64,000 nucleotides of DNA, taken from the sequence record MK310183; one strand, written 5' to 3'. The stretch is from Phage NC-B. Of this stretch, positions 9,327-43,145 are shown piece by piece. The notes beneath the pieces were generated by a model. That model worked only from the letters and a program-made list of their open reading frames with translations. It ran no database searches and was not told the DNA's origin. How positions within the stretch are numbered: position 1 is the first letter of the stretch; the number at the start of each line of letters is the position of its first letter. Both the position numbers and the translations under genes were made by a program.

Positions 9327-9390
9327 AAGACCCTTATAAGGAGATATGTAATGTATTCTCTTTGTCTATACACAACTAGGAGGACAAGTT

Positions 9391-26459: not shown

Positions 26460-26529
26460 TCTAAGACCTAAGTCCTATCTCTTATAATGTATATAGGAGG
26501 TAGGACATTTTTATTTATAAGGAGACGTT

Positions 26530-33032: not shown

Positions 33033-33621
33033 AGAGACCTCTCCGTGTCCCTTCAATAATCCACTCCAAATCCTCCACTGCCTCTTCTACAGAACGGTCG
33101 TTAAAGAGGAGATAGGTTGGTAGATTTGTTCCTTCAATATAAGAACGAGAGTCCCCTTCAAAGGAGCAGCCATCTCGGAGAATCTGAACTACTCGAACAT
33201 GGAAGTGTTTCTCTAGTTCTTCAACTTCTGCTTTAAATCCACCATCAGAGAAGACGATAACATCATTCTGTGATGGGATACGTTGTTGAATATTGCTAAC
33301 AGCAAGTTTACCCATGCAGGTCTCACCAAACATGGGCTTCAGATAGTTCTCACTAGTTGCAATCATCAAGTCTCGAACTGACTTACCGTCCCATTCAGGA
33401 CGGCTATGTTCTTTCCACTCACGATCGTTGTACAGCTCCATGAACTCATAAAGAGGTAGACCTAATGCAGCAGCAGCCACTCGATACATAGGCTCCTTAA
33501 AAGCCTTTACATGCGGCCTAAACTCGGTGTTACCAAGTGTTTTCTCTAACCAAGAATTAGCGATTGTGTCTTTACCACAACCCGGTGGTCCATTCAGAAT
33601 TACTACTAATGGTTTACTCAT
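33025..33621 (-). CDS. P-loop kinase, putative (d)NMP kinase
   Basis: Walker A LNGPPGCGKDT. Confidence 0.55.
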   Translation of the reverse strand: MSKPLVVILNGPPGCGKDTIANSWLEKTLGNTEFRPHVKAFKEPMYRVAAAALGLPLYEFMELYNDREWKEHSRPEWDGKSVRDLMIATSENYLKPMFGETCMGKLAVSNIQQRIPSQNDVIVFSDGGFKAEVEELEKHFHVRVVQILRDGCSFEGDSRSYIEGTNLPTYLLFNDRSVEEAVEDLEWIIEGTRRGLYV

Positions 33622-34271
33622 TATTGAATCATCCCTTGAAGATCTTCTTTATCAAAGTGCTTCTCTACTACCGCTTCATACAGATCACGATTCTCTGAAT
33701 AACGACGATAGAAGGTTCCGTGTGAAATTCCCAACTCTTGCTGGATGTGATCATGTGGGATGCCGAGAAAGAGCATTGAGAACATGCTTGCCATCTTACG
33801 GTTTTCCATAATGTCACTCAGGTCTTGGAAGAAGAAAAAGATTCTAGATTCCAAGAACGGATCTCCAGTAGAATCATGCTTATCCATCGCAATCTCTAAA
33901 GGACTTTCCCATGAATTCATCTCAGGAGGTCTAAACATATCAGCCTCTGGAATAGAGTAGATACGTCGGTCTCCAACTGTCTGACGATTAGAACGAATCG
34001 ACCAGATGATATTCTTGACACGATAAGTCATGTGCTCAATATCTTTTTCATCAGTGAGCAGAAGTTCTTCTTGCTTTGCAAACACAAAACGCCAAGCGTT
34101 CAGTAATACTTCCTGAGCAACATCCTCTGCCTCGTGATAGTCTTTAATGTCATACATAAAATACTTATGCACAACTTTCCAGTTCTCTCGATAAAATTCA
34201 TCGAAGGTTGGATAATATTTAATAGGTATGCCATGAATACGATAGCGTGTGGGTGTTGTCTTTTTCTTCAT
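33621..34271 (-). CDS. phage-encoded sigma factor (sigma-70/ECF-like)
   Basis: region-2-like [18 protein letters not shown] and C-terminal [24 protein letters not shown]. Confidence 0.7.
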
Positions 34272-39082: not shown

Positions 39083-40930
39083 TTAGTGAGTGTGATTCCA
39101 GTTTAACCCAATCTTACAGTCAGATGCCAGAGGGCATTCCATTTTGAGATACTCACCTGCTTTACGAACACACTCTTCAGTGAGGGTACGAAGTTTGTTA
39201 ACATCGTCACGATGTACAGTGAACTGGCCTTCATCATGCATGTCAATAACCTTCGCACAACGAACACCATCACGCTCAATCCATTTATTAAGGAATAGCA
39301 TTGCATACTTCATAACAATCGCCCCAGCGCTCTGTAAGAGAGTATTTAAGGCTTTATGAACCATAACCTTTCCAGTTGCATCTCTTCTCATTGTAATACG
39401 ACGTCCATCCACACCGTAGATGTATCCACTTTGTGCTTTCTCTGTCATACGTTCAATAAGAATTGCAATACAAGGATTCTCTGCTAAGAATCTTGCCCTC
39501 ATGACAGCTCCTTCATCAGAGCCACCGCCTACGATGCTTCCTAACTTAGCGTCACCAGCTCCGTAGTTGAATGCGTAGATAAATGTTTTAGCATTATCAC
39601 GAGTAGGAAGGCCAGCAAGTTTTTGGTTATGTGAGTGAATATCTCCTTCTAAAAGAATATCTCTGTACATAACAGCAGAAGCTAGACCGCGTTCAGCTTC
39701 TCGTTTCTTAGCCGGGTTGTTTTCTCGCTCTGCTTCAGCGAGCATCTCACGACATTCTTTAATAAGGTAGTGAGCTAGCATCCTCAGCTCAAGACCAGAG
39801 CCATCGTAACCTAAGAAGATTTCACGACCAGCAGGAACATAGAACTTATAGGCACCTACAGGTTTGTCTTTCTTGCCCGGTTTTCCCACTTCGTAGATAA
39901 TGTTAGTACCCTTTCGTACGTAACACCCATCAGGGATATGGTTGGTAATGATGAAAGGATGGTTATGACTATCGTCTGAGGAATAGTCAGATTGAAAAAG
40001 ACTGCGGCACTCGTGACCAAACAAACCGCGAGAAGGAATATTAACAACAATGCGATGTTTAAAACGAAATGTCGGAGTAGCGCAGCTATTAGCTTCGGCG
40101 GACAACTTACCATCTTTACGTTCCTTGTCGATAAGCCCGCTAATCAAACCTAGCCTGTGAGCCGCTACAACGCGTCTCTTAAGCAAACTTCCTACACCCC
40201 CTAGCTCACCCCCAAGCCCTTCTTCAAGAGTCTCCTCAAGGTTTGTAGGGGCTGTAGGCCACTTGTTTGATGTAGCCAAAGCTTTTTTGATTTCATCAAA
40301 GGTTACAGGCTTCTTCCTATTAGGGTTAAGACCTAAACCGCTGACATAAGCTTTCATATAATTGACAGTGTGATAACGGAAGTGCTTATCCAAAAACCTT
40401 CGGATATCAGCATCTATCATCTCTGCTGTCTGTTTCTCTTTAGCGTTACCTCGAATCCAAGCAGAATACCATGCAGAGTATGTACCATACTTCTTCATAG
40501 CTTTACGAATTTCAAAAGTATTCCAAGGTTTCTTAGAATAATTCCACTCTGGAGGTATAAAACCTTCATCCATCAAGGCTTCTTTAATACGTGCATCTTT
40601 TGATGGGTCAAAATCTACATACTCAACGCAAGTAAACGCCCCACCGATATCTTCTCTTTTAAGACCAACCCTATCGCAATAGAGCTGAGGCCACTTCTGT
40701 AAAGCACCTGACTTCTTAAAAGGCTTAGCATAAGTTGAACCATCCACCCGCATTTTAGGGAGGAGAGGAATCAGTTCTTTATCAATATTGACAATAATCT
40801 CTTTGAGAAGGTGAACAAACCACCGAGCGTTTCTTCTGTTGAAGTTGACTCCATGCTTCGCTTGTTTTGAGATTATATCAGCGACTGTCATCTCCGTTAT
40901 GAAAGGTAACTTATCAGGGTTATCCATCAC
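39083..40930 (-). CDS. DNA polymerase, family A (polymerase domain only)
   Basis: motif A DGSGLELRMLAHY, motif B RDNAKTFIYAFNYGAG, motif C VIDMHDE; no exonuclease motifs in this ORF. Confidence 0.85.
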   Translation of the reverse strand: MMDNPDKLPFITEMTVADIISKQAKHGVNFNRRNARWFVHLLKEIIVNIDKELIPLLPKMRVDGSTYAKPFKKSGALQKWPQLYCDRVGLKREDIGGAFTCVEYVDFDPSKDARIKEALMDEGFIPPEWNYSKKPWNTFEIRKAMKKYGTYSAWYSAWIRGNAKEKQTAEMIDADIRRFLDKHFRYHTVNYMKAYVSGLGLNPNRKKPVTFDEIKKALATSNKWPTAPTNLEETLEEGLGGELGGVGSLLKRRVVAAHRLGLISGLIDKERKDGKLSAEANSCATPTFRFKHRIVVNIPSRGLFGHECRSLFQSDYSSDDSHNHPFIITNHIPDGCYVRKGTNIIYEVGKPGKKDKPVGAYKFYVPAGREIFLGYDGSGLELRMLAHYLIKECREMLAEAERENNPAKKREAERGLASAVMYRDILLEGDIHSHNQKLAGLPTRDNAKTFIYAFNYGAGDAKLGSIVGGGSDEGAVMRARFLAENPCIAILIERMTEKAQSGYIYGVDGRRITMRRDATGKVMVHKALNTLLQSAGAIVMKYAMLFLNKWIERDGVRCAKVIDMHDEGQFTVHRDDVNKLRTLTEECVRKAGEYLKMECPLASDCKIGLNWNHTH

Positions 40931-40943
40931 CCACTCCTTATAG

Positions 40944-41297
40944 TTATTGGTATATTAAATCTGTGAATGCTTGGTTGTCTTCAACAATATCTAAAGCTTC
41001 ATATGAATCAGCCAATTCATCCACATAAAAGACTGCTGGAATATCTTCTGCTCGTTGTCTACGAGCTTCTCTCTGTTCGTTGCTGTTTCTCTGAACCTGT
41101 GCAAGTTTCATACCCCACACCTGCTCATATAACTCTGGATACTTGTCACTAACCACTACATAGTTTCGAGCTGATTGGTTTCTATTAATCTTCGCTGTCA
41201 ACTCAATAAACTGGCGAAACTCTTGAATAGAGAGGTTGTCATGAATATTATCCCACTTGAGAACGCAGTGACGTTCTAGGCGTTGAGGTACTGGCAT
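40944..41297 (-). CDS. hypothetical protein
   Basis: 117 aa ORF. Confidence 0.5.
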   Translation of the reverse strand: MPVPQRLERHCVLKWDNIHDNLSIQEFRQFIELTAKINRNQSARNYVVVSDKYPELYEQVWGMKLAQVQRNSNEQREARRQRAEDIPAVFYVDELADSYEALDIVEDNQAFTDLIYQ

Positions 41298-41300
41298 AAC

Positions 41301-41558
41301 TTACTCCACTGTAGGGAATGGTTTTAGGTTGTTCATGGCTGTACGAACATCAGCACAGATTTCAGGGTCACGATAAGAGAGGAATTTACCATCCTTACCA
41401 CGAATCATTACATTAGTCCGTGCTGTTTTATTAGGCAATAAAGAAATCCCTTCAATAAGATGGTTGGTAGGGTGTTGTCCTTGATTAACCTTGTAGTCAT
41501 GAGTCTGAGCGTCACCATTAAAGAGATGATCACGAATTTGGATTAAGCTAATCTTCAT
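41301..41558 (-). CDS. hypothetical protein, TARTNV-motif family (paralog 1)
   Basis: …NKTARTNVMIRGKDGKFLSYRD…NLKPFP; start set to ATG 41558. Confidence 0.5.
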   Translation of the reverse strand: MKISLIQIRDHLFNGDAQTHDYKVNQGQHPTNHLIEGISLLPNKTARTNVMIRGKDGKFLSYRDPEICADVRTAMNNLKPFPTVE

Positions 41559-41559
41559 A

Positions 41560-41811
41560 TTATGCACCAAAGTTAGGGAAAGGTTTCAGATTTTCAATAG
41601 ACTTAGCAATACGCTTAGGAACATCCTTATCACGGAAGGAGATGAACTTTCCATCAGGACCACGAAGGGCTACATTAGTACGAGCTGTTGTTTTGTTAAA
41701 CTGAATCATCTCAACAGAGCTTGTAACATTTTCTACAGGAAAAGTATAGCTCTCAGTTGTGTTCAGAGAAGGGAGGAAATCAGTTACAGTGATGTAAGTT
41801 ACTTTAGACAT
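41560..41811 (-). CDS. hypothetical protein, TARTNV-motif family (paralog 2)
   Basis: …NKTTARTNVALRGPDGKFISFRD…NLKPFP; start set to ATG 41811 because GTG 41847 lies inside the terminator. Confidence 0.5.
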   Translation of the reverse strand: MSKVTYITVTDFLPSLNTTESYTFPVENVTSSVEMIQFNKTTARTNVALRGPDGKFISFRDKDVPKRIAKSIENLKPFPNFGA

Positions 41812-41829
41812 ATTTATTACCTTAGGTTC

Positions 41830-41862
41830 TATAAAAGAAAAGGCCACCCGAAATGGGTAGCC
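41830..41862 (-). terminator. rho-independent terminator
   Basis: minus-strand GGCUACCC-AUUUC-GGGUGGCC then UUUUCUUUUAU. Confidence 0.75.
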
Positions 41863-41867
41863 TTATA

Positions 41868-42185
41868 TCAACTTGAGCTTAAAGCTCCTTTGCGACCGCC
41901 TGCTGATTTTCCAGCACGATCTCCACTTTTGCCGCCGTTCGAGCGATTTCGAGAGACTGATTCAACACGTAAGTTACTTGACGCATTAGAACCTCCCGAC
42001 TTGATTGATCGTTTGTGTCCAACATCTTTACCTCGGACAGCAGCTTTTCCATCGCGCTTTTCAACGATGCGACGTGCACGGTGGCGCTGAGCATCTCCGC
42101 TCTTGCTACCAACGCCGGTCTCACCCCTTGCGATTGCAGTTCTTCGTTCTTGTGCATAATCACGTTTCGCCTTATCGGTCATCAT
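41868..42185 (-). CDS. basic Gly/Ser/Arg/Lys-rich low-complexity protein (KGG-repeat-like?)
   Basis: 105 aa ORF with strong TAAGGAG SD; locally GC-rich; a second long ORF (41879..42163) overlaps in another frame. Confidence 0.4.
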   Translation of the reverse strand: MMTDKAKRDYAQERRTAIARGETGVGSKSGDAQRHRARRIVEKRDGKAAVRGKDVGHKRSIKSGGSNASSNLRVESVSRNRSNGGKSGDRAGKSAGGRKGALSSS

Positions 42186-42187
42186 AA

Positions 42188-42217
42188 CTCCTTAATATAT
42201 CAGTGTACACTAAGGAG
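42188..42217 (-). promoter_or_regulatory. SD-sequestering hairpin upstream of 41868..42185
   Basis: inverted repeat CTCCTTA (42188-42194) / TAAGGAG (42211-42217); in the mRNA the anti-SD arm pairs with the SD. Confidence 0.4.
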
Positions 42218-42229
42218 TATACATTATGT

Positions 42230-42967
42230 TTATGATTTTTCAGATTCCATTGCTTTAACAATAGCTTTACAGAAACCTGAACGAACAATATCATCCGATT
42301 CGCCATCTACTAGAGCGGCAAATTCAAATAACTGGTGACGGTAGATGAAATCAGTAGCCCAATCAAGACCGCTCTCACCACGCATGTCGTGCTGGTTAGT
42401 GTCCCCCATACAGAACATCTGAGAGGTTTCACCAAGACGTGTCATGATTGAATATGCTTCATCAGGAGTAGTGTTCTGGAACTCATCAACAATCACGATA
42501 GCATCGTTGAACGAGCGACCACGTAGATATTCCAGAGGTACGAACTCAATATTACCATTACCTACTTGACATTCGTAGAAACCTTTACCGTAGCGCTGAG
42601 TAATAACATCAACGATTGGCATTAGGTATGGTTCAAACTTCTCACGAAGCCCACCGGGAAGTAATCCAAGACTATTACCCATACCAACAGCAGGTCGGCT
42701 TAGGATAATCTTCTCAATCTTCCCACTCTTCAGAGCATCAATCACTGTAGAAGTGATTACGAAGGTCTTACCACAACCAGCAGGAGCATCTGTGAATACA
42801 ACCTGTTTGGTTTTAATTGCATCAAGCAGCTCACTCTGGAATTGGTTCTGAGGTACTACCGGCTTAGCAAGAACTACTTCTTCAAATTCCCGCTTTCCTT
42901 TCTTGGTGACGAGAGCTTCACGACGTAATTCTCTCCGTGATGCTTTCCGAGATTCTCTACGACTCAT
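42230..42967 (-). CDS. phoH: PhoH-like ATPase
   Basis: DAPAGCGKTF Walker A, ILSRPAVGMGNSLGLLPGGLREKFEPY PhoH signature. Confidence 0.85.
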   Translation of the reverse strand: MSRRESRKASRRELRREALVTKKGKREFEEVVLAKPVVPQNQFQSELLDAIKTKQVVFTDAPAGCGKTFVITSTVIDALKSGKIEKIILSRPAVGMGNSLGLLPGGLREKFEPYLMPIVDVITQRYGKGFYECQVGNGNIEFVPLEYLRGRSFNDAIVIVDEFQNTTPDEAYSIMTRLGETSQMFCMGDTNQHDMRGESGLDWATDFIYRHQLFEFAALVDGESDDIVRSGFCKAIVKAMESEKS

Positions 42968-43145
42968 TTCCTACCTCCGTGTTCTTCATATAAGAAGCTA
43001 CAGGATTTACACTCTGAGCAATGGATACCTATAACCTTAATTTCGACAAACTTCTTATTCTTCCCTTTAGTCGGGGAGCCTTTGGCAAGCTCCCGTATTA
43101 CTTTCGAGTCCAAATGGAGAAGAGTTGATTCACATTTAAAACATT

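Follow-up and report, generated by a model that had tools for sequence, protein, structure and literature searches.

The 105-amino-acid (aa) open reading frame (ORF) at positions 41868..42185 (minus strand) of Phage NC-B, an ortholog of the phiEco32 gene phi32_58, appears to form a transcription unit of its own whose Shine-Dalgarno (SD) sequence would be locked in RNA reading through from upstream and free in RNA starting at the adjoining promoter for the phage sigma factor gp36, the product being HNH-like; we put the probability of this reading at about 0.6. The hairpin is most likely a promoter-gated translational lock of the phage T4 gene e type, apparently undescribed for the phiEco32-type group, and the locus is an already catalogued core gene with a known promoter. 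We favor the switch because a promoter-to-SD cassette is near-invariant in 87 phages, because a rearranged variant of this cassette keeps the same logic, and because a similar helix at a second promoter (P68) shows what looks like a compensatory change. The window, i.e., the whole 64,000-nucleotide (nt) stretch of DNA that was analyzed (sequence record MK310183), comes from a Kuravirus (phiEco32-like coliphage). Its positions 41000-43000 are 99% identical to Escherichia phages vB_EcoP-101114UKE3 and IME267, and about 98 Kuravirus records match this region. In the literature other than Pavlova et al. (2012), we found no published description of the hairpin or of its relation to the transcription start site; one paper considered as an earlier description (PMC12247714) proved to be unrelated.

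All genes surrounding the 105-aa ORF lie on the minus strand, in the order phoH-like gene (42230..42967; Pfam PhoH, E = 8e-56), 105-aa ORF, terminator, two phrog_6814 paralogs, a 117-aa ORF, and DNA polymerase (39083-40930), which is downstream of the 105-aa ORF. The phoH stop codon (42232-42230) is located 4 nt 5' of the promoter element and 11 nt 5' of the hairpin. Directly after the stop codon of the 105-aa ORF there is an intrinsic terminator (41831..41864, minus strand; a 10-bp stem with 6 G-C pairs, then UUUUCUUUU), and a terminator is annotated at the equivalent place in the sequence records of phages 4E8 and SU7. Promoter and terminator bound a single-gene transcription unit of approximately 375 nt, which would consist of the promoter, a 29-nt leader, the gene, and the terminator, nested in a longer operon that runs leftward and includes phoH. 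The interval between phoH and the 105-aa gene showed no terminator-like site, and phoH transcription is thus the expected source of read-through RNA carrying the sequence complementary to the SD (anti-SD). The true start of the ORF is probably the second ATG (42182, minus strand; 104 aa), which gives an SD spacing of 5 nt rather than 2 and agrees with relatives, whose proteins begin MTDK... The two tandem paralogous small genes directly 3' of the terminator (41301-41570 and 41560-41811, minus strand) both belong to phrog_6814 (E of about 1e-30); for the second of these, the GTG start at 41847 given by the ORF finder is probably wrong, and the ATG at 41811, which follows AAGGTAATAAAT, fits better.

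The minus-strand leader of the gene reads TAA (the phoH stop)-ACA-TAATGTATA-CTCCTTA-GTGTACACTGATATAT-TAAGGAG-TT-ATGATG. The SD TAAGGAG that the earlier note had assigned to the 105-aa ORF is present at 42194-42188, and the inverted repeat that it had placed at 42188-42194 / 42211-42217 is real and longer than claimed, its arms covering 42187-42199 and 42206-42218. In the RNA, the 5' arm ACUCCUUAGUGUA (42206..42218, minus strand) contains the anti-SD core CUCCUUA (42217-42211), and the 3' arm UAUAUUAAGGAGU (42187..42199, minus strand) includes the SD UAAGGAG (42194-42188); together they form 13 pairs, including G-U, around a 6-nt loop. The read-through RNA folds with -14.7 (centroid) to -15.7 kcal/mol (z = -3.3), and only 1 of 200 shuffled sequences folds as well. 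The pairing probability from the SD to the AUG is 0.92, which ranks first among the 82 SD-bearing genes in the window (mean, 0.52; standard deviation [sd], 0.13). In RNA starting at 42211, the folding energy is -0.6 kcal/mol, the SD is free, and the same probability is 0.34 for RNA from the gene's own promoter.

These values suggest the following mechanism. RNA initiated upstream of phoH and continuing through it would carry ACUCCUUA, which would pair with UAAGGAGU to form the 13-bp hairpin and hide the SD. RNA from the gene's own promoter would start at about A42211, just past the anti-SD, so that no hairpin could form and free translation would be expected. Synthesis of the protein would then have to await activity of the phage sigma factor. 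The translational control proposed earlier from the inverted repeat is accordingly borne out as to SD sequestration, which is predicted, and is plausible as to control; it can be sharpened in that only the read-through RNA can form the hairpin. Other roles for the structure were considered. An RNase III site was ruled out since the stem has just 13 bp, and a terminator or attenuator was ruled out since the hairpin is not followed by a U-tract. Scanning 41500-42600 against Rfam yielded sub-threshold matches only, and these fell on the terminator.

The promoter element TAATGTATA (42218..42226, minus strand) matches the gp36 consensus tAATGTAtA exactly (9/9) and occupies the position of the phiEco32 middle promoter P58; including this element, there are four exact matches to tAATGTAtA in the 64 kb. 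A phage sigma factor gene is present at 33621-34271 (minus strand; phrog_1740, E = 1e-43). In phiEco32, the motif occurs upstream of genes 6, 13, 26, 40, 58, and 68, consistent with experimentally detected promoters (PMC4331800), and the promoter preceding the gene-58 ortholog belongs to a set of three middle promoters (PMC4281155). P58 and phi32_58 were described by Pavlova et al. (2012), as cited in PMC4331800, PMC8948821, and PMC4281155. For the activity of the promoter in phiEco32 and for the distance between element and start, we rely on the literature, in which transcripts start 6 to 8 bp downstream of the consensus tAATGTAtA (PMC8948821) and AATGTA is centered at -11.5 (PMC12276001). 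With this published spacing, we infer a start site in Phage NC-B at 42210..42212 (minus strand). The likeliest position is A42211, since AATGTA would then lie at -14 to -9, and this nucleotide is the last base of the anti-SD CUCCUUA. The anti-SD is located between the promoter element and the predicted start and would therefore be missing from RNA made from the gene's own promoter. CTCCTTA does not follow the other TAATGTATA promoters of the window, which places it outside the promoter consensus.

The corresponding region of phiEco32 carries a promoter-to-SD cassette identical to that of the window over 42 nt. Its gene phi32_58 is orthologous to the window gene, with approximately 90% protein identity, and is found at the same position between the phoH region and DNA polymerase; the immediate upstream neighbor is phoH in the window and phi32_59 in phiEco32. 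Among GenBank Kuravirus records, the 42- to 46-nt cassette is 100% identical in 83 of 87, and the coding sequence adjoining it is just 81 to 86% identical. Which gene lies upstream of the cassette varies from phage to phage, and among Kuraviruses the distance from its stop codon to the hairpin varies as well. Only two cassette variants were seen, one changing a stem pair from U-A to U-G and the other affecting a single loop base. With the cassette nearly invariant across these 87 records, there was no covariation to find within the P58 stem.

A rearranged form of the cassette was found in four more distant relatives (L029, L030, L040, and L042; approximately 71 to 72% protein identity), in which the anti-SD AGACUCCUU is located 21 nt upstream of a promoter-like element, TATTGTATA. 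The layout is AGACTCCTT, 21 nt, TATTGTATA-C-GTGTACAC...AAGGAG, i.e., the anti-SD has moved across the promoter-like element and its pairing with the SD is kept. As in the window, the SD is predicted to be sequestered in read-through RNA only (about -30 kcal/mol), with the pairing probability falling from 0.72 to 0.81 in this RNA to 0.34 to 0.42. The promoter-like element deviates from the conserved core AATGTA by a mismatch (ATTGTA), and its activity is uncertain; one of the contigs carries a canonical TAATGTATA elsewhere.

A second instance of the P58-like design is found in the window at a P68-like promoter, AAATGTATA (46361-46353, minus strand). This promoter is bracketed by an 8-bp helix with arms UCACUCUC (46369-46362) and GAGAGUGA (46322-46315), which overlaps the SD and spacer of the gene at 46313-45984 (minus strand). 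Across six phages, one pair of the helix is C-G in two (the window and L046) and A-U in four (phiEco32, ECBP2, and two others), and it is never broken. The sequences thus compared indicate a compensatory change.

Several observations speak against the switch. The loop, including a perfect palindrome, GTGTACAC, is as conserved as the stem, which means that constraints beyond RNA pairing, such as a promoter-proximal DNA site or a protein-binding site, may contribute. Like P58, P68, which lies upstream of it, is classed as a middle promoter, so the temporal gain from silencing read-through copies is not obvious. Some relatives manage without the cassette, namely ES17, SU7, Grimontviridae, and several metagenomic relatives. 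In ES17 and SU7, HNH homing-endonuclease ORFs fill the interval from phoH to gene 58, and the last of these overlaps gene 58 at TAATG; in Grimontviridae and the metagenomic relatives, translational coupling through an overlapping TAATG or ATGA takes the place of the cassette.

The sequences on either side of the gene-58 ortholog are a hot spot for genes of HNH homing endonucleases, with insertions at 508-1206 in L023 (ES17), 3686-4085 in L002 (SU7), 2369-2863 in L001 (4E8), and 1509-2003 in L025 (Bas89). ES17 and SU7 each have one annotated and one unannotated HNH ORF upstream, in place of the promoter/hairpin cassette, and the unannotated ORF ends in ...CANCHAIHTFNQRESGEI. In 4E8, Bas89, EK010, and E20-1, the insertion is downstream of gene 58 and overlaps its stop codon.

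Two other explanations of the conserved leader have to be weighed against the switch. One holds that the hairpin is a general attenuator or coupling device present on most of the mRNAs and opened by ribosomes terminating upstream or by a trans-acting factor, in which case the protein level would be tied to upstream translation, independent of the promoter of origin. The phoH stop codon is close enough, at 11 nt before the hairpin, for a terminating ribosome to reach the hairpin's foot, and many relatives do express the homolog through an overlapping TAATG or ATGA. We nevertheless regard this explanation as unlikely, given that the cassette is invariant among Kuraviruses in which the upstream gene and the stop-to-hairpin distance vary, that an exact phage-sigma element abuts the anti-SD with the predicted start falling precisely at the anti-SD 3' end, and that the rearranged variant also places its anti-SD upstream of a promoter-like element.

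According to the other explanation, the conserved 42-nt block is constrained as DNA and the RNA hairpin is incidental. The constraint could stem from promoter-proximal or initially transcribed sequence needs of the gp36-gp79 holoenzyme or from an operator for a regulator, conceivably the HNH-like product itself by analogy with I-TevI autorepression; T4 intron endonucleases are known to bind operators overlapping their own promoters (PMC2988022). The conservation of the loop bases and the palindrome at the level of the stem is in keeping with such a constraint, as is the presence of GTGTACAC or GTATACAC in both architectures. A purely DNA-level cause does not account for the absence of CTCCTTA after the other TAATGTATA promoters or for the compensatory change in the similar P68 helix, and it is hard to reconcile, without RNA pairing, with a rearranged variant that loses CTCCTTA from the promoter-to-start interval and regains it upstream, still complementary to the SD. 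We therefore consider it improbable as the sole explanation, and a DNA-level constraint could coexist with the RNA switch. The palindrome GTGTACAC lies within 42200-42210 (minus strand), at +2 to +9 of the predicted transcript, and may serve as an operator or be needed as part of the initially transcribed sequence. Matches to the cassette pattern in viral contigs at integrase-upstream sites (TGTATAC..GTGTACAC palindrome) were judged to be chance or operator-like resemblance.

The promoter-gated switch has documented counterparts in other phages. In T4 e, soc, 49, I-TevI, and segB and in Aeh1 mobE, the ribosome-binding site is sequestered in early or middle read-through RNA, and a late promoter adjoining the hairpin yields transcripts without the 5' arm (PMC3014915, PMC2988022). 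The window gene shares with these cases its place inside a longer operon, a stable helix hiding the SD, and a phage-sigma promoter placed such that the gene's own RNA would lack the 5' arm. Three features of the T4 e-type arrangement are predicted here, i.e., a sequestered SD, a promoter whose transcripts would lack the 5' arm (with the start as predicted), and upstream read-through. Several of the T-even switches control nucleases of the HNH or GIY-YIG type, which fits the HNH-fold product of the window gene. The systems differ in phage family, in the sigma factor (gp36 in the window and gp55 in T4), in the promoter motif (tAATGTAtA and TATAAATA, respectively), and in the promoter class (middle in the window and late in the T4 cases). 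A further difference is that the anti-SD of the window is located in the 6 nt separating the promoter element from +1. The window gene is a conserved core gene and neither a mobile homing endonuclease gene nor a lysis gene, and the T4 switches are documented, whereas that of the window is a prediction from sequence and folding.

The region had first drawn attention as a GC-rich island with two overlapping ORFs, of 105 and 94 aa, and both ORFs are present on the minus strand, the 94-aa ORF (41879..42163) in the +1 frame. The GC enrichment is real (48.9% versus 42.3% for the window; 98th percentile, with an sd of 3.0% for 352-nt windows) but modest, as about 10 other stretches are equal or higher. 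By codon position, the GC content of the 105-aa ORF is 58%, 59%, and 34%. Its GC3 of 0.340 is at the phage mean (0.345 ± 0.042 for 17 long genes of the window), and the excess is confined to codon positions 1 and 2 (0.59 versus 0.47) because the protein is rich in G, R, A, and S (R16, G16, S15, A12, and K11 of 105 residues). The gene is also core to the phiEco32 and 7-11 groups, and the suggestion of horizontal acquisition was accordingly dropped.

The proposal of a dual-coding locus did not hold either. Codons with T at position 2 number just 13 of 106, which makes +1 stop codons rare, and +1 frames open for 94 codons or more arose in 13% of codon shuffles and in 13% of synonymous resamplings with the phage's own codon usage. 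The +1 frame is likewise open in most homologs because of the same composition. Kuravirus and Pseudomonas phages share the main-frame peptide RGETGVGSKSGDAQRHRARR without change while its synonymous sites vary freely, including changes from AGC to TCN, and the +1 translation across this stretch is not conserved. Pfam and phrog searches returned no significant family match for the 94-aa frame. Judged from these sequence comparisons, the 94-aa ORF is a by-product of main-frame composition and no gene. That the stretch is a horizontally acquired GC-rich island, or that it truly encodes two proteins in overlapping same-strand frames, is hence very improbable, even though local GC reaches the 98th percentile and the +1 frame is unbroken in most homologs: the GC excess is limited to codon positions 1 and 2 of a phage-group core gene, an open frame is expected with P = 0.13, and the +1 protein, which has no family match, diverges where the main frame is invariant. 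At codons 27 to 39 of the 105-aa ORF (42068-42106, minus strand), a 39-nt sequence, AGCAAGAGCGGAGATGCTCAGCGCCACCGTGCACGTCGC, does not differ by a single nucleotide between the window and the four Kuravirus relatives with which it was compared, and the neighboring codons vary synonymously; candidate explanations are a target site of a homing endonuclease, a recombination tract, and an RNA element.

The protein encoded by the 105-aa ORF matches phrog_4590 (E = 3e-40) and corresponds to ECBP2_0054 (94% identity) as well as to phi32_58. It is small and basic and has more than 200 homologs, nearly all of approximately 95 to 115 aa, in Kuravirus, Grimontviridae (7-11-like and Privateer-like), Bruynoghevirus (LUZ24 and tf), and Aeromonas, Vibrio, and Photobacterium phages. 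The gene is among the approximately 24 core genes common to the phiEco32 and 7-11 phage groups (PMC8948821 supplement; PMC4281155) and is usually located no more than 1 to 2 kb from DNA polymerase in the phages examined. Around the homolog of Salmonella phage SE131, the pattern of a 7-11-type late promoter (GTAATG-N16-ACTA) was not found. An alignment of 32 diverse members revealed 25 invariant positions in two blocks, ER..A..RGETG.GSKSGDA.RHRARR and V(D/G)H......GG.N...NL.......N...GG. The invariant residues include H57, N71, and N80, which, from their position in the motif, we infer to be the H-N-N positions of an HNH protein (i.e., catalytic His, structural Asn, and metal-ligand Asn).

The window protein has no Pfam match at E ≤ 1 and falls below the HNH gathering score (PF01844, PF13392, and related models). 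Relatives give weak Pfam matches to HNH (23/32; best E = 0.0015) and HNH_3 (7/32; best E = 7.5e-05). An AlphaFold model (pLDDT 70.7; approximately 80 to 83 over residues 31 to 80) has a beta-beta-alpha unit at residues 53 to 82, and HNHc proteins dominate its Foldseek matches among viral models. A profile search of PDB sequences with the protein returned nothing relevant. On the strength of the model and the motif, we read the protein as a minimal, cysteine-less HNH (beta-beta-alpha) fold, with a probable role as a nuclease or nickase in connection with the replication module; this activity is predicted from the fold.

Small stand-alone HNH proteins offer a comparison, namely the Geobacter Gme HNH nicking endonuclease (4h9d), the phage GVE2 HNH protein (5h0o), and packaging proteins of the HK97 gp74 type. 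These proteins and the window protein are all approximately 100 aa and have in common the beta-beta-alpha core and conserved His...Asn...Asn positions. Unlike them, the window protein is without zinc-binding cysteines, reaches no Pfam HNH threshold, and has the extra invariant N-terminal motif ER..A..RGETG.GSKSGDA.RHRARR; its gene is beside replication genes and not next to terminase. In Kuravirus, Grimontviridae, and Bruynoghevirus, the cysteine-less mini-HNH family keeps its place beside DNA polymerase. Bruynoghevirus includes phage tf, the genome of which carries site-specific nicks made by a nickase that has not been identified. The tf nick consensus occurs once per strand in the window. 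As a possible nick-site signal, CTTTATCA, which came from a search for k-mers over-represented on one strand, was rejected: it occurs 15 times on the plus strand and 3 times on the minus strand of the whole window (approximately 1.7 expected per strand), but this bias tracks gene orientation. Codon or dipeptide usage, and not a polar DNA signal, probably accounts for the bias (TGATAAAG is read as GAT AAA G on coding strands).

Three further sites of the window, all on the plus strand, also show unusual sequence contexts. A late promoter-like TAATGTATA (26485-26493) is at the center of a 13-bp inverted repeat, CCTATCTCTTATA / TATAGGAGGTAGG, followed by CATTTTTATTTAT (26470-26520 as a whole), and looks like the terminator of an upstream gene overlapping the promoter of a 1481-aa gene. 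At 1582-1604, TAATGTAGA (one mismatch) is directly followed by AGGAGTATAAGATG; a start 6 to 8 nt downstream would leave a leader of just approximately 5 nt, and the mRNA of this putative promoter would be almost leaderless and without an SD. At 9330-9375, TAATGTATT is in the loop of a hairpin, UAUAAGGAGAUAU / AUUCUCUUUGU, the 5' arm of which includes AAGGAGATATGTAA, i.e., an SD followed by a start-stop mini-ORF.

A broader proposition would be that Kuravirus gp36 middle promoters generally lie inside SD-sequestering hairpins and that the mini-HNH protein is a replication-associated site-specific nickase that is harmful if made early; we consider this a long shot. Were it true, it would apply to P58 and P68 at least, and translation of the first gene would depend on the promoter from which its mRNA came. 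It would mean that the T4 gene e strategy had arisen a second time, independently and around another sigma factor, and the most tightly gated product would be a member of the uncharacterized cysteine-less mini-HNH family.

The analysis removes two attractive wrong readings of this locus, the horizontally acquired island and the dual-coding locus; genes rich in G, R, S, and K routinely have long open +1 frames, which composition explains. It also flags a widespread, uncharacterized small HNH-like family in phage replication modules, the members of which are probably harmful if expressed early. For engineering, which is relevant to therapeutic Kuraviruses, payloads placed near P58 or P68 may be translated from the local promoter only. 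If the switch works as predicted, it would add a post-transcriptional layer to the well-studied sigma-factor cascade of phiEco32-type phages, in which the promoter of origin would decide whether an mRNA is translated, by the same logic that T4 uses for lysozyme and homing endonucleases.
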